This document shows positions 20,771 through 37,135 of a stretch of 64,000 nt of DNA, piece by piece. The notes beneath the pieces were generated by a model that was given only the letters and a program-made list of their open reading frames with translations, was not told the origin of the DNA and did not search any database. The stretch lies in sequence record OR924452; one strand, written 5' to 3'. Position numbers and translations under genes: made by a program. The DNA is from Escherichia phage 241. Within the stretch, counting starts at the first letter, position 1. The number at the start of each line of letters is the position of its first letter.

Positions 20771-21961
20771 ATGGCCGATTTCCTGAGTCAATATACAGGT
20801 CAGCAGATAGATCAGATATTGGGTTCTGTTGACGACAAAGTAAGTAAAAACGACGTCATTGATGATTTTGAAGTCAGTGACCCATTGTTTCCGCCTTCTG
20901 CTCGCCTGACTTATGAGTTGAAAAGGTCTGTGGATACGATTAATGACACTCTGACCAACAAAGTTATAAGAACGGATAGTGGTGAACAGACAATCAACGG
21001 TAAGAAGACATTTAATGCGCTGTTGGTTACTAACGGGGGAATCCAAGTCCCCACTGGGAAATCTGTTTCAATCGCGGACGAACCAACCAACTCAACAGAC
21101 GGTGTCAACCTGAGTATGTTGAGGAAACATGGTGTCAGTGAAGACACCGCGCCAGATGGGTCTGGTTTGGCTGGGGAATTATTGACTTCCGGATATTACA
21201 AATTCAAACTGGATTTTAACAGATTGGCTGCGTATACGGAATTAACTCTCCCAACATCAGTTCCCGTGCAAACAGATTCTGGAGTTCGCACATGGTCAAT
21301 GACTGCATTTTTTAATGCGTTATTTGCCGACAACCGTTTTAACGGTTATGTAACGACGACCACGTATGATGCCGACATGTTGAGTCTGGAGTCTCAGCTT
21401 AACAATATCAACACGACGTTGAACGGAAAAGTCAACACGTCAACTTACAACACAAAAATGGCTTCGTTGGATTTGAGTATATCCAACATTAACACATCTT
21501 TGAGCAACAAGGTTGAGGTCAGCACATATAATACGAAGATGACTTCCTTGGACGGCAGTATCAGTTCTCTCACGACTGGTAAGGTCGATGTATCAACGTA
21601 TAATGCCAAAATGACCACAATTGATAACAGTTTGGGGAACGCTGTTTATCGCACCAAAACAAACTTGTCATCACTGACGGTATCGGCTTCTGGAACAACA
21701 GCTCTGCCAGACTTTGATTTGGTGAAACTTTGCCAGATATTGGTAACAGCACAATGGGGTACAGGAGATGTCGTAGACACATATCGAGTCACCATAACTC
21801 GAGATGGGACGATTAAGTCTGAGCTGCTGATCCAGAAAAGTACGAGCGGAACTGTGACGTTTACGGGTTCTGTAGTTGGTGGGAAACTGAGGATTTCTGT
21901 TGTCAATGCCAATACGACAACACCTTGCTCAGTCGATTATTCTATTACAGCATCTTTCTAA
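20771..21961 (+). CDS. Fiber-like structural protein with internal tandem repeats
   Basis: Four imperfect 24-27-aa repeats (VSTYNTKMxSLDxSIS...) in the middle of the protein. Confidence 0.6.
   Translation: MADFLSQYTGQQIDQILGSVDDKVSKNDVIDDFEVSDPLFPPSARLTYELKRSVDTINDTLTNKVIRTDSGEQTINGKKTFNALLVTNGGIQVPTGKSVSIADEPTNSTDGVNLSMLRKHGVSEDTAPDGSGLAGELLTSGYYKFKLDFNRLAAYTELTLPTSVPVQTDSGVRTWSMTAFFNALFADNRFNGYVTTTTYDADMLSLESQLNNINTTLNGKVNTSTYNTKMASLDLSISNINTSLSNKVEVSTYNTKMTSLDGSISSLTTGKVDVSTYNAKMTTIDNSLGNAVYRTKTNLSSLTVSASGTTALPDFDLVKLCQILVTAQWGTGDVVDTYRVTITRDGTIKSELLIQKSTSGTVTFTGSVVGGKLRISVVNANTTTPCSVDYSITASF
21355..21650 (+). repeat. In-frame tandem repeats (about 75 nt unit, 4 copies) inside the fiber gene
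   Basis: Repeated STYN(T/A)KM codon blocks visible at DNA and protein level. Confidence 0.6.
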
Positions 21962-21963
21962 AA

Positions 21964-22003
21964 CTAAATACCCCTAGATGACATGAATACATTTAGGGGT
22001 ATT
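21964..22003 (+). promoter_or_regulatory. Late-promoter-like motif plus hairpin (CTAAATACCCCT ... AGGGGTATT) before the tailspike start codon
   Basis: CTAAATACCCCT at 21964-21975 pairs with AGGGGTATT at 21995-22003; ATG at 22008. Confidence 0.5.
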
Positions 22004-22007
22004 ACAA

Positions 22008-25000
22008 ATGGCCAACAAACCAACACAGCCTCTTTTCCCTTTGGGTTTAGAAACTTCGGAGTCTTCTAACATAAAAGGCTTCAACAACTCCGGCACCATA
22101 GAGCATTCCCCTGGTGCAATATTGACGTTCCCTGAAGATACTGATGTTGCGGGTCTTCCATCTTCTGTGCGTTACAATCCTGTTAGTGATGAATTCGAAG
22201 GTTATTACGAAAATGGCGGGTGGCTGTCTTTGGGCGGCGGTGGAATACGCTGGGAAACGCTCCCATACGCTCCCTCTAGCAATTTGTTAGAAGGGCGCGG
22301 CTATCTCATTAATAACTCCACTGGGACTTCTACGGTGGTTCTTCCTTCCCCTACGCGCGTTGGTGACTCGGTTACAATTTGTGATGCCTATGGTAAATTC
22401 GCGACGTACCCATTGACTGTATCTCCAGCGGGAAATAACCTGTACGGCTCCACCGAAGATATGACGATATCCACCGATAACGTGTCGGCGACTTTCACTT
22501 GGTCTGGTGCTGAGCAGGGTTGGGTTGTTACATCTGGTGTTGGCCTAGGTCAAGGTCGTGTGTACAGTCGAGAGATTTTCACTCAAATTTTAGCATCTGA
22601 TACAAATGAAGTGACTCTCAACATCCCTCCGACAATTGTGGACGTGTACACTGATGGGAAACGCCTTACAGAATCCAAATATTCTTTAAATGGAAACGTA
22701 ATCACTTTCGACCCTTCTTTACCTGCTGGCACTGAATTGCAGGTAATAGAATATACTCCGATTCAGTTAGGTACTGGCGGCGGGGGTTCGGGCGCTTCTG
22801 CAATCACCTGGATTTACAATGGCGGATCCGCTATCGGCGGCGAAACCGAAATAACGCTAGACATCGTTGTAGATGATGTTCCGGCTATTGATATAAACGG
22901 GTCTCGTCAGTACAAAAATCTTGGATTCACGTTCGACCCATTGACGAGTAAAATCACTCTGACGCAAGAACTGGAACCAGAAGATGAAGTTGTTGTGGTT
23001 ATAAATGGGACACCAAACATTTATAACCAGATCGATCGTTCTTTACAGGAAGTTGCTCGCGCCTACAATTTTACAAATGCTCAAGTTATTTTGAGCAACG
23101 ATTATACTTCTGCGCTGGATAATAAAGTCGTTATTTATGATACAACATCCCAACGTTCTTGGGGGATTCCATCTGGAATTCCAGCAGGTTCTACAGTGGT
23201 TTCCGTCAATGGGGATCAACTGAAATACAAAAATGGATCAACTGAAACCACTGTTACATTGGTGAGTGTACCAGGTAGTGCAGAGAAGTTGAAGAACGAT
23301 CTGGCGTCGAACTCTGGCGCGGGCATGTTGAAAACTTCTAGAGGTGATACCGTAGAAGAAGAATTGACTTTTATTAATCAGAATATGGTCGTTCAAATTT
23401 CAGATTTCGCGAGCCTTAGAACTTTAGTGCCAGCCACAGCGGGCATCCGAGTCAAATTGAAAGGTTATTATTCTGGTTCTGAAATTGGTGGCGGAGAATT
23501 CATTTCCGTCGCTGGTGATGCTGTTGATGATGCTGGGATGATTGCTCGAGTGTCAAGCAGCTTCTATTGGAAGAGAATTATCGACAAACATATTACTCCT
23601 GGTATGTATGGCATCAAAGGGAATCTTCCAGAAGATCCGGCAGTGAAACTGAACGCTATGTTTACGGCTGCGGCTGCGGCTAACGCTTATGTCTTACTGA
23701 ACGATGTCGATACTCTGGTCTGTAAAAGCCCTGTCGTGATCCCAGCACATTCATTAGTGTACGGCAACAAGCGGACCATATTGAAACGTGATGCATCGTT
23801 GTCATATGCTAATGATTTCTTGACAATTATGAATGATTCATATGTCAAGGGGATCTATGTTGATGGTAGCCGTTTAGATTCTCAGACTCCGCTAGAAGCA
23901 GTTTTGGTGCGCATCGCTGGGAATGTGACTATCCATAAGAGCGAGATCCGAAACAATGCTGGCTATGGCGTTGTTGGTAACGCAGTCCCTGGCATTCGTA
24001 TCACCAAGAACATTTTTTCCAACTTCGCCAAAGGTTGTGTGGCTATGTTTGGCGACGGAACGGCGACGAGTGATGATCTGCAAATTAATGATAACAGATT
24101 CTTTAACCTGGGCGCGGGAACCATTTATGTTGGCGGTTACTCAAACTTCCTTGTCGACAAAAACGTCGGAAGAGGCACTTACGTGGGTTCTCCAGGAAAC
24201 CGTCTGTATGTTGTGACCAATACCAACGGGACTATCACCCAAAGCGCTGGGCCAGATTTTGGGGCGCTGAAAACGGGTATGTTCTTTGTATTGCCTGGTG
24301 GTTCTGAACATATGATAACGGCAGTCAACAGCCTTACAAGTGTGACAGTAACCCCAGCGCCTCCGTCGAATGCAACGGTTCGTGCAATTGCTGGGACAGG
24401 GGATCTTCTGGGCATCCAATCATGCTCCTACGGCACCATCAGCCGTAACAACCTGACCGATTGTGTGACTTACGGAACTGGTGGAGGCACGATGGAGGGG
24501 AGCACTCTGGGGTGCAATTATGTCACTTGGGAAGACAACTTCATCCGCAACACAGGTAAGAACGGAATCAACGTCGGGCAATCAGGCGCTGGGGTCGCCA
24601 CGTGTTCAATCCTGAGGAACACTCTGATACAGGTTGGTAACGGCGGTCAGGGCGTCGGCCCAGCGTATCTTCTGCCTTGGTTCGATACGGTAGGTATTGC
24701 TCTGTATCAGGGAAATCCAGGTTATATGGCGAATATGGACGTCAGTGATAACAACGTCTCTACATGGTCTGGCGATCTGAATGACGGCGCTGCTTGGTTT
24801 GGTATGAGCGGTTGTACGGAAGCCACTGTGACTTGTACAGGCAACAAATCTTCTGGTTATTCCGACGGCTATGTTCGTGGAGATATATTAGAAGTCACGT
24901 TGACAGGTTATGGTACAGGGGCGGCTGCGACTTCATTCGTTAGTGATGGTGAGTCTATACAGATAACCGTTCAAACAGGTACTTCACCAACAGCTTCTCC

Positions 25001-25181
25001 TTATTTTTCAGTGCGGAAGGCGATCCGCACCCGCCATCAACCGATGATAACGGCGCAGATCGTCACCACAACTGGGAACATGTCTCATTGTTGGGGCATG
25101 CAATCTAGTACAGCAGGAAACTGGATGGTGGGACAGAATACAACTCCTTCAGGGGTCACGACGTATTACGCAAAAGGGTAA
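22008..25181 (+). CDS. Tailspike protein (long form, multi-domain N-terminus, beta-helix-like C-terminal region)
   Basis: 1057 aa; N-terminal region shares a module with the 747-aa tailspike (RSLQEVARAYNF... versus RSIQEIARSANV...); Gly/Asn-rich repetitive C-terminal region. Confidence 0.75.
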   Translation: MANKPTQPLFPLGLETSESSNIKGFNNSGTIEHSPGAILTFPEDTDVAGLPSSVRYNPVSDEFEGYYENGGWLSLGGGGIRWETLPYAPSSNLLEGRGYLINNSTGTSTVVLPSPTRVGDSVTICDAYGKFATYPLTVSPAGNNLYGSTEDMTISTDNVSATFTWSGAEQGWVVTSGVGLGQGRVYSREIFTQILASDTNEVTLNIPPTIVDVYTDGKRLTESKYSLNGNVITFDPSLPAGTELQVIEYTPIQLGTGGGGSGASAITWIYNGGSAIGGETEITLDIVVDDVPAIDINGSRQYKNLGFTFDPLTSKITLTQELEPEDEVVVVINGTPNIYNQIDRSLQEVARAYNFTNAQVILSNDYTSALDNKVVIYDTTSQRSWGIPSGIPAGSTVVSVNGDQLKYKNGSTETTVTLVSVPGSAEKLKNDLASNSGAGMLKTSRGDTVEEELTFINQNMVVQISDFASLRTLVPATAGIRVKLKGYYSGSEIGGGEFISVAGDAVDDAGMIARVSSSFYWKRIIDKHITPGMYGIKGNLPEDPAVKLNAMFTAAAAANAYVLLNDVDTLVCKSPVVIPAHSLVYGNKRTILKRDASLSYANDFLTIMNDSYVKGIYVDGSRLDSQTPLEAVLVRIAGNVTIHKSEIRNNAGYGVVGNAVPGIRITKNIFSNFAKGCVAMFGDGTATSDDLQINDNRFFNLGAGTIYVGGYSNFLVDKNVGRGTYVGSPGNRLYVVTNTNGTITQSAGPDFGALKTGMFFVLPGGSEHMITAVNSLTSVTVTPAPPSNATVRAIAGTGDLLGIQSCSYGTISRNNLTDCVTYGTGGGTMEGSTLGCNYVTWEDNFIRNTGKNGINVGQSGAGVATCSILRNTLIQVGNGGQGVGPAYLLPWFDTVGIALYQGNPGYMANMDVSDNNVSTWSGDLNDGAAWFGMSGCTEATVTCTGNKSSGYSDGYVRGDILEVTLTGYGTGAAATSFVSDGESIQITVQTGTSPTASPYFSVRKAIRTRHQPMITAQIVTTTGNMSHCWGMQSSTAGNWMVGQNTTPSGVTTYYAKG

Positions 25182-25190
25182 TATTGAATG

Positions 25191-25228
25191 CCTAAATACC
25201 CCATATTGGACATCCTTTATGGGGTATT
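25191..25228 (+). promoter_or_regulatory. Late-promoter-like motif plus hairpin (TAAATACCCCAT ... ATGGGGTATT)
   Basis: 10-bp perfect stem AATACCCCAT/ATGGGGTATT with a 14-nt loop, 3 nt before the ATG at 25232. Confidence 0.5.
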
Positions 25229-25231
25229 ATC

Positions 25232-27235
25232 ATGATTTCTCAATTCAATCAGCCACACGGCTCCACTTCAATATTTGTTAACAAACAATCTATCGCTCTG
25301 AATTTCGGTGTCACCAAAGACGAAGTTGTTTATTTCGCTGCTGGCATTGACCTTAGCGGATACAAAGTAATCTATGATGAATCGACTCAACGGGCTTATT
25401 CTCTTCCAGCTGGGATTGTTTCAGGAACTACTGCCATCAGTCTGGACGAAAAAGCCATTTTGACCCATTCGGCTGGCTCTGTTGATCTTGGAGAACTGGC
25501 TGTGCAACGCGGAGAGTTTGTTACTGTACCTGGTTCTTTTAATTTCGGCCATACCATTAATGTGAAAAATGAACTTCTTGTTCACGATGATGAAAAATAT
25601 CGATGGGATGGTTCTTTGCCAAAGGTAGTTGCCGCTGGTTCTACACCCGATAACTCAGGCGGTGTTGGCACAGGCGCGTGGGTTAGCGTTGGGGATGCGT
25701 CATTAAGGAATGAGTTAGCAAGTCCTTCAGGATCATCACTTTCAGGTCATTCAAATGGCCTTTCGGTAGCTGAAAACCTGAATAACCTCTTAGCAAAAGC
25801 ACAATTCATCACACCAGAGCAATTTTACAGCAATCATCCTGGTGAAACTGACTGGGCTGTGATGATTAACGAGGCATATTCCTATGCTCGCGATCATAAT
25901 AGTTCTGTGTTGCTTGCTAATGACTACCACACTGCGTCAACAATTGTTCACTTAGACGGTGTTACTGTTATTTGTACCGGGCGTATTATTGCATCGCCAA
26001 CAGGAACATATTCATACACCACCGCATTAGGTAATGAAGAGGAGGCTGCTTATGTAATTACTACTGAAAATGGTGTGTTTAACAATGCAAAATCTTCATC
26101 TCTTTACGGTCTAACATTGACATATACAGACAATAGAGAACCATCAGGATATACCGACCCTCACATACTAGCTAAAGGCGTTGTCATTACTGATACGGCT
26201 AATGTTTACATAAACAACCTGCAAACATTTGGGTTCTTAAATGGCGGTGTCGATGTTGGTGGAATTTCTGGTAATGGGTTTGAGATTGTAATAAATAAAT
26301 GTTTAGCCTGGATTTACGCATGGACGGATTCGGAGAAGATAGGATTCCGATGCAACGTTACAGACTCTACATTCTATGATGTCGTAACTGTAGCATATGG
26401 AATTGGAATTCATAATGTTAAAGGTGGTGGAAACGTCTATTTTAACGCGCACCCATGGGGGTATCCTTTAACCGCCGCTAATCTATACCCAAACAGACAG
26501 TGTAAAATTCAATTTCTGTTAACAGGGGGTGGCACAACTTTCTTCAGGCCGTATGCCGATACAATCACAAAATTAGACAGCAGTCAAAACGCTAGTCGGG
26601 CCAATGGTGGTGTTGGGTTTTACATCGACAACTGGAGAAATAAAATTATCGCAGCAGAGGTGGCGATACATAATGATGAGATTAGCACTGGAATGTCATT
26701 AGCTTACCTGGTAGGCGATGCCTCGCGTAATGAAATTGAATTCACAAACATAAACAACACATCGAAACTTGGGAATGAAAGAGTTTCATATGATTCAGGA
26801 TATCAAACCGCTTTATTTACAAACATTGTCAGAATTCCTGAGTATAACGCAGGTAATTTAAGCAACCTTACAGGAAGCATATCATTCAATGGTACAGGAG
26901 TTACTTCTTCTGGCACGTACAGTTTACGCAGAAGTGGTGAGTATATAGACATTCTTTTAACTATAGGAGTGACTTCAATATCAAGCCCATCCGGACCATT
27001 ATCAATCACGCTACCACGTGGTCTTGTGTGTAGATTTGGGCCATCAGCAGAGCCTGAGCAGACTTCGTGCTTTGGTAACATCAGTTCAATCAATATAGGT
27101 GTAATTGCAGTTCTAAACGGAAGCTCTATAGAGTTCTATTACAAGACAGCAAATGGGGCAAGGGTCCTTATTAATGCAGCTGGAGTATCAGTCGGGACTC
27201 TTGAGTTATTTTTAAGAGGTAAAATTTCGAATTAA
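25232..27235 (+). CDS. Tailspike protein (short N-terminal anchor type)
   Basis: 667 aa; first 160 aa are homologous to the N-terminus of the 826-aa tailspike; divergent C-terminal domain. Confidence 0.75.
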   Translation: MISQFNQPHGSTSIFVNKQSIALNFGVTKDEVVYFAAGIDLSGYKVIYDESTQRAYSLPAGIVSGTTAISLDEKAILTHSAGSVDLGELAVQRGEFVTVPGSFNFGHTINVKNELLVHDDEKYRWDGSLPKVVAAGSTPDNSGGVGTGAWVSVGDASLRNELASPSGSSLSGHSNGLSVAENLNNLLAKAQFITPEQFYSNHPGETDWAVMINEAYSYARDHNSSVLLANDYHTASTIVHLDGVTVICTGRIIASPTGTYSYTTALGNEEEAAYVITTENGVFNNAKSSSLYGLTLTYTDNREPSGYTDPHILAKGVVITDTANVYINNLQTFGFLNGGVDVGGISGNGFEIVINKCLAWIYAWTDSEKIGFRCNVTDSTFYDVVTVAYGIGIHNVKGGGNVYFNAHPWGYPLTAANLYPNRQCKIQFLLTGGGTTFFRPYADTITKLDSSQNASRANGGVGFYIDNWRNKIIAAEVAIHNDEISTGMSLAYLVGDASRNEIEFTNINNTSKLGNERVSYDSGYQTALFTNIVRIPEYNAGNLSNLTGSISFNGTGVTSSGTYSLRRSGEYIDILLTIGVTSISSPSGPLSITLPRGLVCRFGPSAEPEQTSCFGNISSINIGVIAVLNGSSIEFYYKTANGARVLINAAGVSVGTLELFLRGKISN

Positions 27236-27237
27236 AA

Positions 27238-27270
27238 TAACCCCGCTTCGGCGGGGTTTTGTTATTTTCT
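27238..27270 (+). terminator. Rho-independent terminator
   Basis: CCCCGCTTCGGCGGGG hairpin plus TTTTGTTATTTT. Confidence 0.8.
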
Positions 27271-27403
27271 CTTATCGTGGCATATAATTTGTTTATTCAA
27301 AGATTCTTCTAATTCAGGATGAAACCCATTTCATAAATTTTGTTGTGTAGACTATGTTAAGAGGAAGAGTATAAACATAGATAAACTCAACATATTGATA
27401 CTC

Positions 27404-27441
27404 ACTAAATACCCCATATTGGCAAATCCTTTATGGGGTAT
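27404..27441 (+). promoter_or_regulatory. Late-promoter-like motif plus hairpin (CTAAATACCCCAT ... ATGGGGTATT)
   Basis: Same element as at 25191; the track's start at 27433 lies inside the 3' arm of the hairpin. Confidence 0.5.
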
Positions 27442-27447
27442 TTTCAA

Positions 27448-29676
27448 ATGACCAGAAATGTAGAAGAATTATTCGGCGGCGTAGTCACAGCTCCCCACCA
27501 GATTCCTTTCACTTATAAATCAAGTGTCGGTGGAGAAACTTTCATTTCTCTACCTTTCTATCCTGTCACTGGTGTTGTCACAATTAACGGCGGCATGCAA
27601 GTTCCGTTAGACAACTTCGAGATAGACGGGAATACGTTAAACCTCGGGCGCGCATTGTCTAAAGATGACGTGGTTTATTGCCTGTTCGACAAAATCCTTT
27701 CACCAGAAGATACTTCTAAAGGCATTCGAATATACAAATTTCAAGCCGTGGGTGGGGAAACTGAATTCACGCCTGACTTTACTTCTTATGGTGTACAGTC
27801 TCTTTATATCGGTGGCGAGTACAAAACCCCAGATATAGAATATTCATACAACAGTACGACTGGGAAAGTTTCCCTACAAACTGCTCTGACTGCAGGGGTG
27901 TGGGTTGTTGCGGAGATGTCTGTTAAACAACCGAATATCAGTCCGGCGTTCGATCGCAGTATCCAAGAAATTGCCCGTTCGGCTAACGTAAAAGACTCTG
28001 AAGTCATTGTCAGCACTGATACCATATCTTTACTCGACGACAAGAAAGTTGTTTATGATTCAGCAGCGCAGGTTATTTATGGTTTACCAACTATTCCTGA
28101 TGGTTCAGTGATTTCTTCTGTATCTGATGGAAAATTGACTTATAATCCAGGTGATGTGCAGGTTGATCTGTTACCATTACCAGATTCTGCCCAGGCAGTT
28201 AAATTATTCTATTTGCAACCAAGTGGCGCAGAAAATATTAAAGTTTCCAGTGGCGACACAGTACAAGATATTCTGAATAATATCAATAAACACCGTGTTG
28301 TAAGCAGCATTTCAGAACTTTTGAATATATCTCCAACAGAAACGTCAGTTGTATTCGTGGCATCTTTCCATCCATCAACCAATTACGGGGGTGGATTCTT
28401 CCGTTGGGATCCGTCTGGAAACAAGGCAACCCACAATGGTGGTACGATTATTGATCCTGATAAAACGTTTCCGACTTGGGACAGCGCAGGTAAAACTTCT
28501 TGGTTTACCGCAAGCGGGACGGGTACTGGTGTTTGGCGTCGGCAAGACGTGATGGGTCATTACCGTGCTGAAGATTTCGGTGCACTCCCTTGGAACGTCG
28601 GGGACGCGCATGACAGTACCAAAGAATTCCAACAAGTGGCTAATGTGGCTTATCGGGGCGGTTGCTGGAGATGGACAGGTCGCCATCGCATTACGAGTTA
28701 TATCGATATCCCCAATAAACAGACTTTTGGTTCATACGCCCAAATGACTTCTGTTTATTCTGAATTATTCCAGCCTAGCAATTTCCAGGGGGTGCACGTT
28801 ATTTCTGATCCTTCTTTAGCGCGTTCTGTGCAAAATGCAGTCTTCTTTGATGCTGCGACCGGAGAAGCATTCCGTTGTGGGGAAGGTGCATCCCCGACCG
28901 ATTTTTTGGTGTACGGAAGAGGGTTTACAACTACTGGGATGGATTTGGCAACATCATTACCTTCGGCGGCGTCGTATTGTGACACCCAAGCATTCCGTCA
29001 TGGGAAGGCTATTAACGTGCGAAATGTTACTGTTGCGCTTATGAAGTACGCATTGGATTCTAATCCATGGGATGCCAGCAAAGGTGATTATTATTCCACA
29101 ACGGATCATATGACGATTTTGTATTGTTATTGCATTAGTCGTGTACCAACTGGCCAGGATATAACATTTAACACCAAGCATATCAATATGCGTGCATATG
29201 TAAACCAGATTGGCGATTATGGATTGGCAGTCCGAAATGTGGTGTTTATCGGTGGATCCATAGAAGGATATAACACTTCAACATTCTTACGATCCAGTAC
29301 TCAACTTTCTTTCAAAGGCACATATTTTGAAACGGGTGACACGTCATTCAATGGTACAGTATTCAGCCTTGTTGGTTGGTGTACTCTTAACTTTGAAGAA
29401 TGTCTTGTTTATTTGAACAACACCACAAACTTCGTGTCTTCTGGTGGTTCTGGGCAATCTGCTGGCGTCTTGGGTCTAACGATTAAATCTCAAGGTAACG
29501 TGTGGCGTAAAACTGACGCGGGGACAACCACAGTGTTTGCAGTTGACCCAGTCACTAATAAACAAGCCTTAGTTGGATCCGAAATATTGAATGCTGCGAG
29601 TGGGGCAACTATCGCATATTGGGCTGGTGCCGTCCCACCTGGCACATACACGGCTCCAATCAGTGTTGCATTTTAA
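27448..29676 (+). CDS. Tailspike protein (long form)
   Basis: Start moved to the ATG at 27448 (MTRNVEEL) by analogy with the 25232 gene; N-terminal modules shared with the 1057-aa tailspike. Confidence 0.7.
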   Translation: MTRNVEELFGGVVTAPHQIPFTYKSSVGGETFISLPFYPVTGVVTINGGMQVPLDNFEIDGNTLNLGRALSKDDVVYCLFDKILSPEDTSKGIRIYKFQAVGGETEFTPDFTSYGVQSLYIGGEYKTPDIEYSYNSTTGKVSLQTALTAGVWVVAEMSVKQPNISPAFDRSIQEIARSANVKDSEVIVSTDTISLLDDKKVVYDSAAQVIYGLPTIPDGSVISSVSDGKLTYNPGDVQVDLLPLPDSAQAVKLFYLQPSGAENIKVSSGDTVQDILNNINKHRVVSSISELLNISPTETSVVFVASFHPSTNYGGGFFRWDPSGNKATHNGGTIIDPDKTFPTWDSAGKTSWFTASGTGTGVWRRQDVMGHYRAEDFGALPWNVGDAHDSTKEFQQVANVAYRGGCWRWTGRHRITSYIDIPNKQTFGSYAQMTSVYSELFQPSNFQGVHVISDPSLARSVQNAVFFDAATGEAFRCGEGASPTDFLVYGRGFTTTGMDLATSLPSAASYCDTQAFRHGKAINVRNVTVALMKYALDSNPWDASKGDYYSTTDHMTILYCYCISRVPTGQDITFNTKHINMRAYVNQIGDYGLAVRNVVFIGGSIEGYNTSTFLRSSTQLSFKGTYFETGDTSFNGTVFSLVGWCTLNFEECLVYLNNTTNFVSSGGSGQSAGVLGLTIKSQGNVWRKTDAGTTTVFAVDPVTNKQALVGSEILNAASGATIAYWAGAVPPGTYTAPISVAF

Positions 29677-29679
29677 TTT

Positions 29680-29703
29680 CCCCCTCCTTCGGGAGGGTTT
29701 ATT
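29680..29703 (+). terminator. Rho-independent terminator
   Basis: CCCCCTCCTTCGGGAGGG hairpin plus TTTATT. Confidence 0.7.
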
Positions 29704-29723
29704 AGAAAAACAGGAGATTCATC

Positions 29724-32204
29724 ATGAATCCGCAATTTGCTCAACCGAAAGGTTCTACTTCAAAAGAAACGAACAAAGATAGCATCGCCCGTAAATTTGG
29801 GTGCAAAAAGTCGGAAGTCGTTTATGCCAAAGCGGGACAGTCTTTGTCTGGTTATAAAGTGATCTACGATAAGGTGTCTCAACGTGCCTACGCTCTCCCT
29901 TCTAACATTGGTGCTGTAACGGTCACCAGTTTAGTTGACGGCATCCTCACGCACTCTGGAGGCACTGTAGATTTGGGTGCGCTGGCGGTGTTGCGTGAGG
30001 AATACGTCATTCTGATAGAAAATTTCACTTCCGGATTTACGATTCGTGTCAAGAACGAAGTCGTGAGCGATGGAGTGAATTTATACCGCTGGGGTGGTGG
30101 TTTACCAAAGACTGTCAATGCTGGTGAAGATCTAGACTCCACTGGAGGGATTAGCGTGGGGGCGTGGATTAGCGCGGGCGTTGCTTCATTGAGGAACGAT
30201 CTTGCTGCTAATGATGGGTTTAAATTTATTGGGCAATGTCCAGATATAGCAACATTAAGGACAATTGAACCTGGCGTCAATGGTCAAAGAATTATATTAC
30301 GGCAACATACGGCTGGAACTGGTCTTGGCGGCGGTTCATTTAGGGCTGTAGTTGATGGCACCGGATATGAAGACGATAACGGAGTGGTTATTAAAACAAC
30401 TGGCGGTGCCGCCTGGCTACGCCTCAACGCAGATAGAGTTAATCCGTTTATGTTTGGGGCAACAGGTGGTGTGGACGACACTGTGGCTGTTCAGGCCAGC
30501 GTAGATAGTGGTCGAGCCACCGAACTAACTGCGCCATTCAACGTCACTTCCATTAAGCTGAAGAAAAAATCTGCAAGTATCTACGGGTCAGGTATGCACA
30601 TCTCAAGGCTAGTGCAAAAACCAGGGGTGGCTGGTGACTGTGTGGTTATTGAAGATACCTGCTCGCTTATTAAATTGGATAATTTCGGTATTTACGGAAC
30701 TGGTGCACAGCAAGATACTGCATTCACTGCGGGAACGCGTGGATTAGTTGTTCCAACCCCCACCGGACTTTCTACAAACTACCCATTTAACACATCAGCA
30801 GACCCACGAAGGGATTTGTGTATCAACAACGTGCATATTGCTGGGTTTGATGAGTATGGACTTAAAATCGAAAATGGAAACTTTTCAGTATCAACGACAA
30901 ACCTTCTTATTAACCACATTAATCAAGTTGGTGCGTATTGCGCAACAACAGACTGGACTTGGACAAATATCCAGATAAATACCTGTGGTAAGGAGTGTCT
31001 TGTCTTAGATGGCGCTGGCAACGCCCGTATTATTGGTGCTAAACTTATTTGGGCTAACTGGCAACCATATGCTGCTTCAGGTAGTTACCCTGGATTGAAG
31101 ATAAACAATTGTCAAAACATTACTATGAGTGCTACAGAGGTTCAGGACTGCGGTTCTGATGGCATAATCTTTAAAGACAGTTATTCTATTTCAATTTCAG
31201 GACTAAACACGAACAGAAACAGCATAAACAGCAACTACTCATATAACAACTGCGTATTTGATAGTTGCGACGTTACAATTGATGGGTTCGTTGGTCTTAA
31301 CTATTCTTCAAACTCAGGTTCGGGGATACCTTCCAGTGCCGCTAATTTTAGATTCCTGTCTTCAGATTGTACCGTAGTCGTAAACGGAAATGTAGAGTCA
31401 GAGTATCTCGGTATCTTGTTCCGTGGTGATAACAATATTATTCAGCCAACGAATTCAGACCTTAAAATAAATGGATTGATTAATTACGATAAAACAAGCA
31501 TTACATTTCAAAATGTAATGCCTTCATTCGATGGTGTTAGTACCACTCCTGTATTCGTTCCCGCCCCATCAATTATAGGCCAGGCAAACGGACTTCGTTT
31601 GTCACAAGGAAATAAAGACAAAATCAGGTATACAACATCCAGAGTTCCAGCTGGTGGCGTGTCACTATCTGCAATTCTAATACCAACAATAACTGGCGCT
31701 GAAACGTTTAATATTATTGTTCTGGGTACTGGATTTGGCTCTACCAACAATAGCCTCTACTTTCAGTTAAATGTCGACTCATCAGGAAATCAAAGCGTTG
31801 CATTACTTATCAGTGGCGATGGTCAAACACAAGTTCTTTCTGGGGTGATTCCGGATGAATTTAAGATACAAAGTGGAGTTCCGTACCATTTTGCATTGGG
31901 TGCTGCTCCTGGGAGATTCTGGTGGAGTATATTAAATATTCAAACAGGTTCACGTATAAGAAGGGCATTTAGACGTGATTACTTAAGCGCTCCATTTAAC
32001 AGCTTATTTGGTAATGATGTTTCTATAAATTTCTTCTCAGGTGAAGGTTCATCAGATGAAGCATGCTCTGGGATTGGGGCAAAAGTTTATGCTGGAGCAT
32101 TCAGTTCTGAATCTGATTATTGCGCAAGCAGATACTACAGTTTGTACAATCCTATAGACCCATCTAAAATGTTTAGCTATAGAACACTTGATGGCTCCAT
32201 ATAA
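29724..32204 (+). CDS. Tailspike protein (short N-terminal anchor type)
   Basis: 826 aa; AGGAG RBS; N-terminal 160 aa paralogous to the 667-aa tailspike; beta-helix-like repeats. Confidence 0.75.
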   Translation: MNPQFAQPKGSTSKETNKDSIARKFGCKKSEVVYAKAGQSLSGYKVIYDKVSQRAYALPSNIGAVTVTSLVDGILTHSGGTVDLGALAVLREEYVILIENFTSGFTIRVKNEVVSDGVNLYRWGGGLPKTVNAGEDLDSTGGISVGAWISAGVASLRNDLAANDGFKFIGQCPDIATLRTIEPGVNGQRIILRQHTAGTGLGGGSFRAVVDGTGYEDDNGVVIKTTGGAAWLRLNADRVNPFMFGATGGVDDTVAVQASVDSGRATELTAPFNVTSIKLKKKSASIYGSGMHISRLVQKPGVAGDCVVIEDTCSLIKLDNFGIYGTGAQQDTAFTAGTRGLVVPTPTGLSTNYPFNTSADPRRDLCINNVHIAGFDEYGLKIENGNFSVSTTNLLINHINQVGAYCATTDWTWTNIQINTCGKECLVLDGAGNARIIGAKLIWANWQPYAASGSYPGLKINNCQNITMSATEVQDCGSDGIIFKDSYSISISGLNTNRNSINSNYSYNNCVFDSCDVTIDGFVGLNYSSNSGSGIPSSAANFRFLSSDCTVVVNGNVESEYLGILFRGDNNIIQPTNSDLKINGLINYDKTSITFQNVMPSFDGVSTTPVFVPAPSIIGQANGLRLSQGNKDKIRYTTSRVPAGGVSLSAILIPTITGAETFNIIVLGTGFGSTNNSLYFQLNVDSSGNQSVALLISGDGQTQVLSGVIPDEFKIQSGVPYHFALGAAPGRFWWSILNIQTGSRIRRAFRRDYLSAPFNSLFGNDVSINFFSGEGSSDEACSGIGAKVYAGAFSSESDYCASRYYSLYNPIDPSKMFSYRTLDGSI

Positions 32205-32207
32205 CAA

Positions 32208-32236
32208 AAACCCCGCTTCAGCGGGGTTTTTATTTC
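32208..32236 (+). terminator. Rho-independent terminator
   Basis: CCCCGCTTCAGCGGGG hairpin plus TTTTTATTTCT. Confidence 0.8.
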
Positions 32237-32296: not shown

Positions 32297-35200
32297 ATGC
32301 AATCTACAAATCTAAACCGTCGCCCGTATTGGGACGACTGGAATCCTGGAAAACGGTTTTCACGGATTCTTTTTCGCCCGATGCCTATTAAAGTTCAGAC
32401 TCGTGAACTAAACCAGATGCAGACTATTCTGCAAGATCAGATTGAAAAGCTGGGAAACCATTTGTTCAAAGATGGATCTATGGTTATCCCTGGTGGTCTG
32501 ACGATTACCAACGCCGCTGTATCTATGAAATTCACTCTGGCTGGCGGTACTGAGTTTACTGATCTGGAAGGGATTACTGAACTTTATGTTCTGGGAAAAG
32601 ACAATAATGCCAAAGCGCGTGTGCTATCTCTTGAACGTGATCTGTCTGCTCCGGATACGATGTTGGCCATCCTTGAAATGACAGAAGTGGGTAATGCAGA
32701 TGGCTTCCACGTCAACGACAATCTGTATTTCCAAACCTATGACGTCAATGACAACTTCATTCGTATTGGTTATGGTATCGCAGCTGCGGTGACTGGTTCT
32801 ATCGTCGCTCGTATGACGAAGGGCGTTTACTTCATTCGTGGGATGTTCCTTGATGTTGATGACGCGACTCTCATCGTCGATAAAACTTCAAACACTTCTT
32901 CCCATCGCGTCGGGTTTAAAGTCACTGAAACCATCGTGACTGAATCTGAAGACGAATCCCTTTATTCAAACGCTCAGGGAACGATTAACTCCAAAGCCCC
33001 AGGCGCTCATCGTCTTCGAATAGATCTGGTCTTATCTCGATTTGATTATGATGCTGTGGTTGAAGACTTTGTTGAACTGGCCAAAGTTCGTGATGGTAAA
33101 ATCCAGTCTATGGTGACTCAGTCCACCTATAATATTCTGGAAGACACGTTGGCTCAACGGACGTATGAAACCAACGGCGATTACAACGTTTCAACGCATC
33201 AGATCGACATCCGCGAACACCTGAAAGTCAATAACAATGGTGGTGTATTCAATGCTGCTGATGGCGGCGACGAAAGTAAATTCGTGTCTGTAATGAAACC
33301 AGGTATTTCCTATGTTCGCGGTCGTCGTATCGAAAACGTCGGGGAAGAGTTGGTGATCGTTGACAAGGCACGGGATACCGATGTCCTGAATAACACGCCT
33401 GTCGCAGTTGCTACAGGGAATTATCTGGTCACCAAGAACTCCAAAGGTGTTCCAGTAATATCTCGCACTGTGCGATACAAGTTATTGAACGCATCTGGCG
33501 CTGCTCAAGCCACGGCGTTGTGTATATCCGCTGAACGCAATTCAACTGAATTCCGTCTGTACATGCGTGATTTGGTTGTGACTGGGGACGCGTCCACTAT
33601 CACCAAAGTGTCTTATGAAGAAAGTGGTATCACCATGTTCTCTGCTGAACTGGAATCCAACCAGTTTAACCAGAGTTCTATGGTAGACTTGATCTTCTCT
33701 CTTCCGGTCTTCGGTGTTAAAACATTAGCGCCAACAGGTTCCGTGGATATCAACTACACAGTCCTCAGAACTTATAAGGTGACGCTAGACAGCAGCGGTT
33801 CTGGTTCTATTTCAGCTCCGCTGGGATATAGTTTCTCTCCTGAATTTTCGTTGTATTCTTCTGCGAAATCCGATGGTTCAGAAGCGCAATTTGATATCTC
33901 TGGCTCTTTGTCACTGACTGGTTCTCCGGTGGGTTCGGCTTTGCAGATTTCCCTGGGTAGCGGTAATGCTAACCAGTCAATCAATTTGCTGGCACTGATG
34001 ATCCGCACTACGGCCACGATCAAAACGAAGACGATAACTGAAACCACAGAGTCTGTGACTTTTACTTCCCAAACCAGTAGACCTCTGGCAAATCACGACG
34101 GCTGGAAATTGGTATCTGTCAAAAATGATACTGGCGCGGACGTGACTTCGAGCTTCACCCTCGACGGTGGCCAACGCGATGCGGGATATTACAAGGCTAA
34201 TCTGTTATCCACCGCTGGAGCCATTTCAGGGACGTATACGGTGGTGTATCAATACTTCGCGCATAGTTCGGGGGATTTCTTCTCAGCGGATTCGTATACT
34301 TCAATGGATTACAAAGATATCCCGAATTATACATCCTCCACATCAGGGGCGGTGTATGGTTTGGCCGATAGCCTTGATTTCCGTCCGAAAATTACCAACG
34401 GGACATCCGACACTGATATGGTTCGCCCGAATACGGCTGTCATCCTGGACACAGAGTATTATTTGCCTCGTATCGACGCGATTTATCTGGCAGATAATGG
34501 CGTGTTTGGTGTAGCCCGTGGCATCAGTTCCAACAACCTGGCGTCCCCAGCAATACCTGCAAACTCCATGCGTTTGTATGAACTGTTGATTCCCCCATAC
34601 ACGCCGAATATCGATGATATACAAATTCGCACCATCGATAACCGTCGTTATACGATGCGTGATATCGGTAAACTGGAAACGCGTATTTCCAACGTTGAAT
34701 ACTACACCTCTCTGTCGCAGCTGGAATCTTCGGCGATGACACAACAGGTATTTGATCCAATCACGGGTAATCCGCGATTCAAAAACGGTATCGCCGCCGA
34801 TCCATTCAAAGACTTCCGTCTTATTGATGATCTGTCTGAAGATTGGATGGGATCTATCGATACGGAAAATGGACGTTTGCGTCCGTTTGTTCAACAGAAC
34901 GCCGTTGACATGACTCCAGTAGGCTGGAACAAAGTGATGGATGGTATGGTGGTTTGTAACTACACGCCTGAAATCTCCGTGAACCAAGAATACGCGACGA
35001 CGACGATCAACGTTAACCCGTATGCTGTATTCAACTGGGAAGGTTTCTTGAAGATTAACCCGACCACGGATTACTGGTTTGAAAACTACTATGTCGCCCC
35101 GCGTGTTATCAATGAAACGATCAACACTCGTGGTACTGTACAAGAAGGTTCGGTGTACGGGACGTGGCGTACTGTTTCTGTTTCTGATCGTGTTTGGGAG

Positions 35201-37135
35201 CCGCATGGCGCTGGTGGTGTGTGGTGGGGATACCGCTATCGCACGACTGTTTCTGCCCGTGATGTCACCACATACACATACACGGACAAAACAACCACGA
35301 CCATGACTGGCGAACAGATTGTGGAAACGCAGGTTATCCCATACATGCGCGAAATTGATATTTCTTTCGACGCTTCTGGGTTGCGACCTTTCACTCGCAT
35401 GTATGCATTCTTCTCAGGTCGTGATGTGAATCTGTATTGCAAGCCGAATGGTGGTAATTTTGGTGACCCAATCACCACTGATGCCAATGGCGCAGTCAAA
35501 GGCGTGTTCCGCGTTCCTCAGAACGATACGATCAAGTTCAACACAGGTGACAACGTGTTCCGCTTGACGGATAGCCCCGTTGACAGTAAATCTGCGGATG
35601 ATACGCTGACTAATGCTGAAATTGTTCACAAATCTTTCGGTAAGAAACAAGGGATTCAAAAGACCTTTGTCAATACTCGAGTTCTGGGTTATACCGCAAG
35701 CACCAGCACCGAAACCAGCACTTCTGAAGTTGTGGTCGACCAATGGCGTGATCCAATTGCCCAATCGTTTATGGTGGCAACTAAGATCGGTGGTGAATAT
35801 ATCGAAGGCGTGGAAGTATTCTTCTCCACCAAGTCACGTGATGTTCCGATCACCCTGGAAATTCGCGAGATGGAGAATGGCTTACCATCCCATACCGTCA
35901 TAACTCGTAAAACTTTGAACCCATCTGAGGTGACGATCTCTACAGACTCGTCTGGCGGTACGAAGTTCACCTTCGATTATCCGGTATACTTGCAAGCATC
36001 GACTGAGTTTGCTATTGTTCTGTTGGCGAATACTCAGGATTACAACGCGTATATCGCGGAAATGGGCAAGAAAAACCTTCTGTCCAACGAATATATCGCC
36101 AAACAACCGTATACAGGGGTGTTCTTCACTTCTTCAAACGGTTCTACATGGTCTCCCAACCAGATGGCAGATATGAAGTTCCGTGTTTATCGTTGTAACT
36201 TTGCTGCTGGTCAGAACGTTGTAACATTTGATCCGAAACTTGGACCGAAACAACGTCCGCTGGGGTTGAACACTCTCAACTGTGTGAGCGGGTCTTCTGT
36301 CGTGACCGTGTTTGCACCTGGTCATGGTTTGGTTGCTGGGAACAATGTCACTCTGTCTGAATTGACAGGCGGTTGTGGCTTTACTCCTGAACAACTTAAC
36401 AAAACGTTTACTGTGACAGATGCGAGCTATACTTCATTCAAGATTGACGTCGGTTCAGCAGCAGACAGCAACGGGCAAATCGGCGGGGATAATGCTTCGT
36501 TCTTGGGCAATTATCTGGTTGATATGTTCTATGCGAGTGTTACAAATTCAGCTCTGGAAGGTTCGATTCTGAAATTGGAATACCGTTATCGCGATGCCAC
36601 TTCAAATTCTATGTCTGATTGGGCTGAGTTTGAAACTGACACTGACGTGGCGTTGCCGACTGAAGGGATCTATCGTCAGGTTGGGGATTTCCAGATCCGA
36701 GCCACCATGACGCGCAGTGAAAACAACGTGTACACCGCTCCAATGATTGATGGCGATGACCTGAGCGTAATCTTCAACTCATACGGCGTGGATCCATTTG
36801 AAGATGTCTTCAAATATGTGACAAAAGACATCGGATTTGATAACCCATGTTCGACTGTGAAGTTGTTCTTTGGTGCAATGCTCCCATCTCAGTCTTCTAT
36901 GAAGGTGCAGGTGAAACTTCTTAGAGCAGGTCAGGAGATGGATAGTGTGGCTTGGGAAGATGTTACTCCAACGTCGCCTCTGGTCAACGACGGTTCTACA
37001 TTCTTTGAATATGAATACGACAAGACTGTGGCGAGCAATAACCCGTTTGTTGGCCTGAAAGTCCGAGCGCTTGTACGGGGGAACCGCGTTGCTCCTCCAT
37101 CATTCAAAGACTTCCGTCTTATTGCTCTGGCATAA
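32297..37135 (+). CDS. Giant virion structural protein (1612 aa), probably baseplate or tail associated
   Basis: Single uninterrupted 4.8-kb ORF in the structural operon, between the tailspikes and the neck genes. Confidence 0.8.
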   Translation: MQSTNLNRRPYWDDWNPGKRFSRILFRPMPIKVQTRELNQMQTILQDQIEKLGNHLFKDGSMVIPGGLTITNAAVSMKFTLAGGTEFTDLEGITELYVLGKDNNAKARVLSLERDLSAPDTMLAILEMTEVGNADGFHVNDNLYFQTYDVNDNFIRIGYGIAAAVTGSIVARMTKGVYFIRGMFLDVDDATLIVDKTSNTSSHRVGFKVTETIVTESEDESLYSNAQGTINSKAPGAHRLRIDLVLSRFDYDAVVEDFVELAKVRDGKIQSMVTQSTYNILEDTLAQRTYETNGDYNVSTHQIDIREHLKVNNNGGVFNAADGGDESKFVSVMKPGISYVRGRRIENVGEELVIVDKARDTDVLNNTPVAVATGNYLVTKNSKGVPVISRTVRYKLLNASGAAQATALCISAERNSTEFRLYMRDLVVTGDASTITKVSYEESGITMFSAELESNQFNQSSMVDLIFSLPVFGVKTLAPTGSVDINYTVLRTYKVTLDSSGSGSISAPLGYSFSPEFSLYSSAKSDGSEAQFDISGSLSLTGSPVGSALQISLGSGNANQSINLLALMIRTTATIKTKTITETTESVTFTSQTSRPLANHDGWKLVSVKNDTGADVTSSFTLDGGQRDAGYYKANLLSTAGAISGTYTVVYQYFAHSSGDFFSADSYTSMDYKDIPNYTSSTSGAVYGLADSLDFRPKITNGTSDTDMVRPNTAVILDTEYYLPRIDAIYLADNGVFGVARGISSNNLASPAIPANSMRLYELLIPPYTPNIDDIQIRTIDNRRYTMRDIGKLETRISNVEYYTSLSQLESSAMTQQVFDPITGNPRFKNGIAADPFKDFRLIDDLSEDWMGSIDTENGRLRPFVQQNAVDMTPVGWNKVMDGMVVCNYTPEISVNQEYATTTINVNPYAVFNWEGFLKINPTTDYWFENYYVAPRVINETINTRGTVQEGSVYGTWRTVSVSDRVWEPHGAGGVWWGYRYRTTVSARDVTTYTYTDKTTTTMTGEQIVETQVIPYMREIDISFDASGLRPFTRMYAFFSGRDVNLYCKPNGGNFGDPITTDANGAVKGVFRVPQNDTIKFNTGDNVFRLTDSPVDSKSADDTLTNAEIVHKSFGKKQGIQKTFVNTRVLGYTASTSTETSTSEVVVDQWRDPIAQSFMVATKIGGEYIEGVEVFFSTKSRDVPITLEIREMENGLPSHTVITRKTLNPSEVTISTDSSGGTKFTFDYPVYLQASTEFAIVLLANTQDYNAYIAEMGKKNLLSNEYIAKQPYTGVFFTSSNGSTWSPNQMADMKFRVYRCNFAAGQNVVTFDPKLGPKQRPLGLNTLNCVSGSSVVTVFAPGHGLVAGNNVTLSELTGGCGFTPEQLNKTFTVTDASYTSFKIDVGSAADSNGQIGGDNASFLGNYLVDMFYASVTNSALEGSILKLEYRYRDATSNSMSDWAEFETDTDVALPTEGIYRQVGDFQIRATMTRSENNVYTAPMIDGDDLSVIFNSYGVDPFEDVFKYVTKDIGFDNPCSTVKLFFGAMLPSQSSMKVQVKLLRAGQEMDSVAWEDVTPTSPLVNDGSTFFEYEYDKTVASNNPFVGLKVRALVRGNRVAPPSFKDFRLIALA

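Follow-up and report, generated by a model that had tools for sequence, protein, structure and literature searches.

The tailspike locus of phage Φ241

Within a 64,000-nucleotide stretch of DNA from Escherichia phage 241 (sequence record OR924452; the whole stretch is referred to here as the window), positions 22,008 to 32,204 hold four open reading frames (ORFs) in tandem, whose products are tailspike proteins (TSPs) that would assemble into one branched receptor-binding complex. An earlier sequence-only reading of this DNA had reported four ORFs of 1057, 667, 747 and 826 amino acids (aa), and all four are present on the + strand at exactly the positions it gave:

22008-25181, + strand: tsp4 ORF, 1057 aa
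25232-27235, + strand: tsp3 ORF, 667 aa
27433-29676, + strand: tsp2 ORF, 747 aa
29724-32204, + strand: tsp1 ORF, 826 aa

TSP4, TSP3, TSP2 and TSP1 match exactly four consecutive GenBank proteins of Escherichia phage 241 (WQZ19204.1-WQZ19207.1); judged by these matches, the cluster is the tsp4-tsp3-tsp2-tsp1 locus of Φ241, a Kuttervirus (Ackermannviridae) already published as a phage of E. coli O157:H7. The announcement of its genome (GenBank OR924452, 157,291 bp), which was assembled from PacBio reads at ~3,991x coverage, names ECML-4 as the closest relative and does not analyse the tailspikes (PMC11320906). Three tRNA genes (Ile-GAT, Tyr-GTA and Met-CAT) lie in the window at 13069-14667 on the - strand, the same set as that reported for Φ241 (PMC11320906). 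The DNA flanking the cluster is 97-98% identical to that of Kutterviruses such as Mooltan, Matapan and ECML-4. From the ORF map and from synteny with the annotated genomes of PS5, Vi01, AV101, pSC20 and ECML-4, whose loci have the same gene order, the tsp genes sit between baseplate-wedge genes and vriC, a placement that PMC8432352 describes as the layout of the family.

An all-against-all comparison of the four proteins bears out part of what the sequence-only reading had said of their N-termini. The ~160-aa N-terminal anchor that it had assigned to the 667/826-aa pair is found as a segment of 53% identity between TSP3 aa 1-173 and TSP1 aa 1-171 (E 9e-47). For the 1057/747-aa pair, the similarity that it had noticed is real (35% identity over 225 aa, E 8e-31), but it joins TSP4 aa 275-498 to TSP2 aa 105-323 and is thus an internal segment rather than a shared N-terminus, the first ~270 residues of TSP4 having no counterpart in TSP2. 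To sort the N-termini into two groups is also a simplification, since weaker similarity through head domain D1 is common to all four proteins (TSP4 347-432 with TSP3 19-115; TSP4 349-547 with TSP1 21-257; TSP2 166-249 with TSP1 7-89). The claim that all C-terminal domains differ holds: outside the shared segments, the comparison yields no significantly similar pair among the C-terminal parts (hereafter TSP1-C to TSP4-C). An absence of beta-helix or other enzyme folds from the C-terminal domains had been named as a sign against the proposal, and we find support for the beta-helix in all four C-terminal parts, from a homologue of solved structure for TSP1-C, from models for TSP2-C and TSP3-C and from a Pfam Beta_helix match for TSP4-C.

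N-terminal assembly regions resemble those of CBA120

Plattner and colleagues are said to have described, in 2019, a branched receptor-binding complex of TSP1-4 in Kuttervirus CBA120. The literature on the CBA120 complex also includes Chao et al., 2022 (PMC8825819) and Greenfield et al., 2019 and 2020, and shared N-termini with divergent C-termini had already been described for this phage (Kutter et al., 2011), whose spike structures, receptors and assembly have been elucidated since then. The corresponding regions of the Φ241 proteins are as follows:

22008-23024, + strand: TSP4 N-terminal assembly region, aa 1-339
23025-23648, + strand: TSP4 head/neck/D3'-like region, aa 340 to ~547, TSP2-like
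25232-25705, + strand: TSP3 N-terminal anchor, aa 1-158, with the D1-D2 head and the beginning of the neck helix (...ASLRNELAS...)
27433-28452, + strand: TSP2 N-terminal assembly region, aa 1-340, XD2-XD3-D1-neck-D3'
29724-30188, + strand: TSP1 N-terminal anchor, aa 1-155, D1-D2 head

A phmmer search aligns TSP4 aa 1-339 with residues 1-338 of the CBA120 TSP4-N crystal structure 7rej (E 2.4e-204). Together with the linkers and the domain limits of PMC8825819, this alignment divides the region into a baseplate anchor domain (AD, aa 1-75), XD1 (80-178), XD2 (189-249) and XD3 (~266-336), and all three inter-domain linkers of 7rej are kept, namely GGGG at 76-79, GLGQGRVYSR at 179-188 and a Gly-rich stretch at 250-265 (T250-A265). 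TSP2 aa 6-340 match residues 1-318 of the CBA120 TSP2 structure 6w4q (E 1.7e-149), and the TSP2 N-terminus is 76% identical to ECML-4 TSP2 1-318; no Tail_spike_N (D2) match is found in TSP2 with Pfam, leaving D1 as its single head domain. The N-terminus of TSP3 matches aa 1-164 of CBA120 TSP3 (6nw9/5w6f; E 1.8e-88), that of TSP1 matches the N-termini of CBA120 TSP3 and TSP1 (E ~1e-46), and Pfam Tail_spike_N (PF18668) is recognised in TSP3 aa 91-155 and TSP1 aa 90-152, the two E-values being 1.2e-28 and 4.4e-15.

The real start of tsp2 is probably its sixth codon, ATG 27448, which would give a protein of 742 aa, because ATG 27433 lies inside a conserved upstream element (...ATGGGGTATT..., part of the upstream hairpin). 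CBA120 and ECML-4 TSP2 begin MTRNVEELF, in agreement with a start at 27448, and TSP2 is annotated with 742 aa in several phages (Marshall, Maynard and Se-J).

The part of TSP4 that directly follows its assembly region is TSP2-like. This head/neck/D3'-like region is 35% identical to TSP2 105-323 of the window and 30% identical to ECML-4 TSP2 100-348, and 6w4q matches TSP4 aa 274-544; D2 (Tail_spike_N, PF18668) has no Pfam match in TSP4, and aa 340-547 have no sequence match to the CBA120 TSP4 delta-N structure 5w6h. This type of TSP4, with a TSP2-like head, neck and D3' and with D2 undetected, is widespread, being that of Vi01, ECML-4 and PS5, and is unlike CBA120 TSP4.

TSP1 carries an O157-type module

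The receptor-binding part of TSP1 occupies most of its gene:

30189-32204, + strand: TSP1 receptor-binding module, aa 156-826, a predicted O157-type endoglycosidase module, neck-D3'-D3 beta-helix-D4

TSP1 aa 156-826 are homologous to residues 251-921 of CBA120 TSP2 (1012.8 bits to 6w4q in phmmer), a solved O157-specific endoglycosidase for which Asp506 and Asp571 are the catalytic residues, Glu568 and Tyr623 an alternative pair, and Arg594 a further residue of note (PMC7506556). TSP1-C is 64.6% identical over 670 aa to ECML-4 TSP2, a protein of the CBA120 type, and keeps the catalytic and supporting residues (D506 as D410, E568 as E472, D571 as D475, R594 as R498 and Y623 as Y527); the chloride ligand N565 (S469 in TSP1) and the sulfate ligand K465 (N369) are not conserved. 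The same module is present, at 99.7-99.9% identity, in TSP1 of Marshall and PS5.

Φ241 forms plaques only on strains with the O157 antigen, failing on per mutants and plaquing on the complemented strain (PMC4330901). Because the phage needs this antigen and searches with all four proteins found no other O157-like module in the cluster, TSP1 is most likely the O157 determinant of Φ241. Modules of this kind are also known from other phages: the spikes of Kagunavirus-type siphophages (Rogue1, AHS24, AKS96 and C119) and of O157 typing phage 9 are 49-55% identical to TSP1 aa 156-826 over 90-99% of the length, and, where receptor-binding proteins at least 30% identical across the binding domain are counted as one subtype, the O157 subtype spans genera (PMC10408124). 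These O157 spikes differ from TSP1 in their N-terminal anchors and virion morphology, and each is a single spike as opposed to a member of a branched complex. The 90%-identity cluster of TSP1 (29724-32201) also holds 796-801-aa proteins on ~48.6-kb contigs and a partial 'effector protein' from a Citrobacter portucalensis metagenome-assembled genome, and from these members it follows that the O157-type variant occurs outside Kuttervirus genomes too.

The TSP3 module lies on an exchanged cassette

The second gene of the cluster is set apart by its 3' part, listed here with the hairpin behind it:

25706-27235, + strand: TSP3 receptor-binding module, aa 159-667, beta-helix plus C-terminal beta-sandwich
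27239-27258, + strand: intrinsic-terminator-like hairpin after tsp3, AACCCCGCTTCGGCGGGGTT followed by a T-run, inside cassette 25708-27403

Among Kutterviruses, only this C-terminal cassette of TSP3 is unusual, as far as sequence comparison can tell. PS5 aligns at ~97% over the whole region except 25708-27403, a segment of 1.7 kb with a GC content of 0.397 (0.453 for the window) that consists of the tsp3 C-terminal module, its own terminator and ~145 nt of intergenic DNA (27260-27403) without a match in any compared tailspike locus. Its left end lies in the part of tsp3 that encodes the neck, and its right end coincides exactly with the motif CTAAATACCCC that precedes tsp2, similarity to PS5, Vi01, pSC20 and AV101 resuming at 27404/27405.

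A megablast search of 50,697 phage records with the cassette gave no nucleotide match, and its relatives had to be sought with tblastn, which aligns TSP3-C at 71-76% identity with the C-termini of TSP2 from pSC20, A221 and AV101. Over TSP3 aa 178-667 the identity is 70-71% to AV101 TSP2 (WJJ54143.1) and 74-76% to pSC20 TSP2, with full coverage (E ~1e-235). Spikes on E. coli prophage-like contigs are 84-85% identical to the cassette in nucleotides and 85-89% identical to TSP3-C in protein, and one of them adjoins a lambda-like tail gene set. Both prophage-like spikes that we examined are followed, on the opposite strand, by an Acyl_transf_3 gene of 363 aa (9955-11046 in contig L006 and 8204-9295 in contig L008), whose product could be an O-antigen acetyltransferase that shields the lysogen from phages with the same receptor.

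A cassette that lacks a nucleotide match in the phage collection, is lower in GC and has its nearest relatives on E. coli prophage-like contigs might be taken for an assembly chimera, in which prophage-derived host DNA was joined to a phage contig. We consider this very improbable, since the reading frame runs unbroken through the junction in the neck-coding region and the right junction coincides with a conserved intergenic element. The cassette is, moreover, only 84-85% identical to the prophage-like copies and so is not contaminating host DNA, the PacBio assembly stands at ~3,991x (PMC11320906), and the same module is carried on Ackermannviridae TSP2 scaffolds in pSC20, A221 and AV101.

AlphaFold2 models TSP3-C (pLDDT 89.4) as a beta-helix followed by a C-terminal beta-sandwich; the closest fold to this model is the Det7 gp208 tailspike 6f7k (E 2.6e-12), followed by the tailspikes of HK620, Sf6 and P22. 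AV101 TSP2, the experimentally characterised relative, recognises E. coli O82, gives translucent zones on O82 lawns and was modelled as a beta-helix by AlphaFold2 (PMC10791037).

Receptor-binding modules of TSP2 and TSP4

The two remaining modules are these:

28453-29676, + strand: TSP2 receptor-binding module, aa 341-747, modelled as a right-handed parallel beta-helix
23649-25181, + strand: TSP4 receptor-binding module, beta-helix plus C-terminal part

TSP2-C belongs to a type that is shared with SeF3a, Marshall, PS5 and Maynard (97% identity to the representative of its cluster), and relatives are present in a P22-like prophage, at 71% identity, and in genomes of Citrobacter, at 55-56%. The AlphaFold2 models of TSP2-C and TSP3-C are confident right-handed beta-helices, and most of the known structures nearest to them are tailspike depolymerases, lyases and glycosidases. 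The entire TSP4 protein shows 99.7% identity to that of ECML-4 and shares one 90% cluster with the proteins of Vi01, PS5, Maynard and Matapan; within it, Pfam Beta_helix (PF13229) matches aa 631-719 with E 6.5e-7, above the gathering score, and homologues of TSP4-C at 48-57% identity, several on ~71-kb contigs, carry the beta-helix families PF13229/PF27114. The search for these homologues scored the 8000 candidates that shared most words, and the near-identical Kuttervirus proteins were recovered from the protein cluster instead; profile searches of the PDB with homologue alignments were dominated by N-terminal columns and added little on the beta-helices. No published receptor came to light for either the TSP2 type or the TSP4 type, and Table 3 of PMC8432352 lists none for the PS5/Marshall group.

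Two more specific identities for TSP2 were considered and set aside. As a Vi-capsule acetyl esterase spike of the Vi01 type it would be expected to carry the C-terminal module of Vi01 TSP2 behind the conserved N-terminus; nucleotide similarity to Vi01 tsp2 stops at 28175 (~aa 248), and the C-terminal model is a beta-helix. Assignment to the SPTD1 TSP2 type, which recognises Citrobacter, is unsupported, SPTD1 TSP2 having 729 aa and a C-terminus that is conserved in a different set of phages.

A broader version of the question applies to all four spikes, namely whether at least one C-terminal module is a non-enzymatic adhesin or an enzyme of another class, for example an acetyl esterase like the Vi-specific TSP2 of Vi01. 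An esterase-type spike is indeed annotated at the Vi01 TSP2 position, and no catalytic residues have been identified for TSP2-C, TSP3-C or TSP4-C. Nonetheless, the C-terminal module of Vi01 is not present in Φ241, the resemblance of the two TSP2 proteins ending where noted above; the TSP2-C and TSP3-C models are right-handed beta-helices that lie near depolymerases, lyases and glycosidases; TSP1-C keeps every catalytic residue of CBA120 TSP2; and the AV101 TSP2 relative of TSP3-C clears O82 lawns to translucency. We therefore hold a departure of this kind to be quite unlikely.

The C-terminal domains had also been put forward as the parts of the cluster most likely to be novel, which they are not. 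Each of the four proteins has an exact counterpart among the deposited proteins of Φ241. Other sequenced Kutterviruses carry three of the four modules at 97-99.9% identity, one module is homologous, at 64.6% identity, to the CBA120-type TSP2 module of known structure, and the fourth is 71% identical to the typed module of AV101 TSP2.

A proposed branched complex with four predicted specificities

In CBA120, attachment to the baseplate has been proposed to run through the anchor domain of TSP4, and analytical ultracentrifugation and structures showed that XD2 of TSP4 binds XD2 of TSP2, that XD3 of TSP4 binds the TSP1 head and that TSP3 joins only a preformed TSP4:TSP2 complex (PMC8825819). The assembly domains of the Φ241 proteins are so close to these that a matching topology is the mechanism with the best support. 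By homology with CBA120, four homotrimeric tailspikes would form one branched complex at each corner of the baseplate: the anchor domain of TSP4 would attach it to the baseplate, the T4-gp10-like XD2 of TSP4 would dock TSP2 through the XD2 of the latter, XD3 of TSP4 would dock the head of TSP1, and TSP3 would be added to the preformed TSP4:TSP2 assembly, probably on XD3 of TSP2. Each spike would then present its own right-handed beta-helix module, which would bind and probably cleave one surface polysaccharide, most likely an O-antigen, so that the virion would carry four specificities. Of this picture, the sequence identities, domain homologies, folds and conserved catalytic residues are shown by our analysis, and the physical assembly, the enzymatic activity and the receptors are inferred from them.

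We put at roughly 0.93 the probability that TSP1-4 make up a branched receptor-binding complex that bears an O157-type module on TSP1 and an O82-related module on TSP3 and that became mosaic by recombination. The proposal of the sequence-only reading, tandem tailspike genes for a branched complex, is to this extent supported, by conserved N-terminal assembly modules joined to four unrelated C-terminal modules.

Three points weigh against this interpretation in whole or in part. The head of TSP4 is TSP2-like and apparently lacks D2, unlike that of CBA120 TSP4, and some contacts in the complex may accordingly differ. TSP3-C, at 70-71% identity to AV101 TSP2, falls below the cut-off for transfer of specificity, given in PMC8432352 as at least 75% identity in the receptor-binding module, which makes O82 a lead as opposed to an assignment. 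Finally, the published host range of Φ241 is lysis of O157 strains only (PMC4330901).

The last point could mean that only TSP1 works as a receptor-binding protein and that TSP2, TSP3 and TSP4 are structural passengers or relics without a host, which would leave the phage with one effective specificity. In keeping with this idea, 48 O157:H7 strains were lysed by Φ241 and 18 non-O157 E. coli strains were not (PMC4330901), and some TSPs of the related phages SPTD1 and EP75 are not linked to any known host (PMC9965104). The panel used, however, held only E. coli, with no O82, Salmonella or Citrobacter strains (PMC4330901), and could not have revealed hosts of those kinds. None of the four ORFs is disrupted; many phages that were isolated independently conserve TSP4 and TSP2 at 97-99.7%; a separate CTAAATACCCC lies ahead of each of tsp4, tsp3 and tsp2; and the closest receptor-tested relative of TSP3-C is a functional O82 spike. 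On balance we think it unlikely that three of the spikes are idle, and we retain the complex with four specificities as the favoured interpretation.

Intergenic elements and flanking genes

Between and around the tsp genes, the window contains a set of candidate regulatory elements and two flanking genes:

21964-21974, + strand: CTAAATACCCC motif upstream of tsp4, an exact match to a known ViI-like regulatory motif (putative late promoter)
25192-25202, + strand: CTAAATACCCC motif upstream of tsp3
27405-27415, + strand: CTAAATACCCC motif upstream of tsp2, at the right-hand edge of the swapped tsp3 cassette
9996-10006, - strand: further copy of CTAAATACCCC
9517 (- strand), 54803 (+ strand) and 57979 (+ strand): copies of CTAAATACCCC with one mismatch
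29682-29697, + strand: short GC hairpin with a T-run between tsp2 and tsp1
32206-32231, + strand: strong terminator-like hairpin after tsp1 and before vriC
20771-21961: 396-aa phrog_3838 protein of unknown function in the upstream flank, annotated as 'putative tail fiber' in PS5 and Vi01
32297-37135, + strand: vriC, a 1612-aa VriC/VrlC-like protein, identified by synteny with annotated PS5, pSC20 and AV101

CTAAATACCCC is listed as a regulatory motif specific to the ViI-like family (PMC7283392) and has 7 matches in the window against 0.72 expected. Before tsp3 and tsp2 it is followed by an inverted repeat (AATACCCC...GGGGTATT), which has a variant form before tsp4 and ends a few bases ahead of the start codon. 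A motif scan of the window places no copy before tsp1, whose upstream region (29677-29723) has a good AGGAG ribosome-binding site after the GC hairpin. The lack of a CTAAATACCCC element, together with the short hairpin with its T-run and the AGGAG site ahead of tsp1, suggests that tsp1 is expressed by read-through from tsp2. A scan for sigma-70 promoters gave 22 matches, no better than chance (23.4 expected from shuffled sequence).

A mosaic locus built on fixed scaffolds

The resemblance of the Φ241 locus to that of CBA120 extends from gene order and flanking genes to a nearly identical TSP4-N (AD-XD1-XD2-XD3, with its three linkers), a TSP2-N (XD2-XD3-D1) at 76% identity to the protein of ECML-4, which is near-identical to that of CBA120, D1-D2 heads on TSP1 and TSP3, and C-terminal beta-helix modules. 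The two differ in that the O157-type module, at 64.6% identity when compared with ECML-4, is carried by TSP1 in Φ241 and by TSP2 in CBA120, that the TSP2, TSP3 and TSP4 modules of Φ241 are unrelated to the O157, O77 and O78 modules of CBA120, and that the Φ241 TSP4 head is TSP2-like and without a recognisable D2. The Salmonella phages PS5, Marshall, Matapan and Mooltan share tsp4, tsp2 and tsp1 with Φ241 at 97% in nucleotides; they have a P22-like O:4/O:9 TSP3-1 module (PMC8432352) where Φ241 has the 25708-27403 cassette. In AV101 (an Agtrevirus) and Salmonella phage pSC20, receptor-binding modules homologous to TSP3 aa 178-667 sit on a TSP2 scaffold (XD2-XD3), whereas in Φ241 the module sits on a TSP3 scaffold (D1-D2).

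With ECML-4, only tsp4 is shared in full. The cluster is, on these alignments, assembled from at least three sources, because tsp4 matches ECML-4 and Vi01, tsp2 and tsp1 match PS5, Marshall and Matapan, and the tsp3 cassette is nearest to E. coli prophage-like spikes. Recombination at conserved sequences, namely the neck-encoding region and the intergenic CTAAATACCCC elements, would account for this mosaic. The sequence-only reading had spoken of shuffled N-terminal modules, which reverses the direction: the scaffold formed by the N-terminal anchors is fixed, and it is the C-terminal modules that move between scaffolds.

Exchange of modules has already been described for the family (PMC8432352; PMC10791037; PMC10408124). 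In the 2021 Kuttervirus survey, exchange is reported for TSP1, TSP3 and TSP4 only, and the TD1 region of TSP2 is dissimilar (PMC8432352). An exchange between tsp2 and tsp1 has been noted in Agtrevirus (PMC10791037), so that the presence on TSP1 and TSP3 in Φ241 of two modules that other phages carry on TSP2 is a minor extension. Taken jointly, a natural transfer of modules between the TSP2 scaffold and the TSP1 and TSP3 scaffolds, with joints at the neck, and additional, undetected hosts of Φ241 are a proposition on which we find the odds evenly balanced. Through TSP3, TSP2 and TSP4, such hosts may include E. coli with an O82-like O-antigen and serogroups of Salmonella or Citrobacter.

For basic biology these observations carry little weight: the architecture is already known, from the multi-spike system that has been studied best in myoviruses, novelty is absent from the C-terminal domains as well, and the locus is a deposited, annotated instance of a well-characterised system. 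As a natural example of modules moving between TSP2 and the TSP1 and TSP3 scaffolds, the locus is relevant to the engineering of chimeric Ackermannviridae spikes, which is already routine (PMC9965104). For Φ241 itself, our analysis assigns O157 specificity to TSP1 and not, as is usual, to TSP2. The label 'O157-specific' under which Φ241 has been proposed for biocontrol in food rests on a panel unable to detect the other three specificities, and the phage is predicted to have three further spikes whose targets would lie outside that panel.

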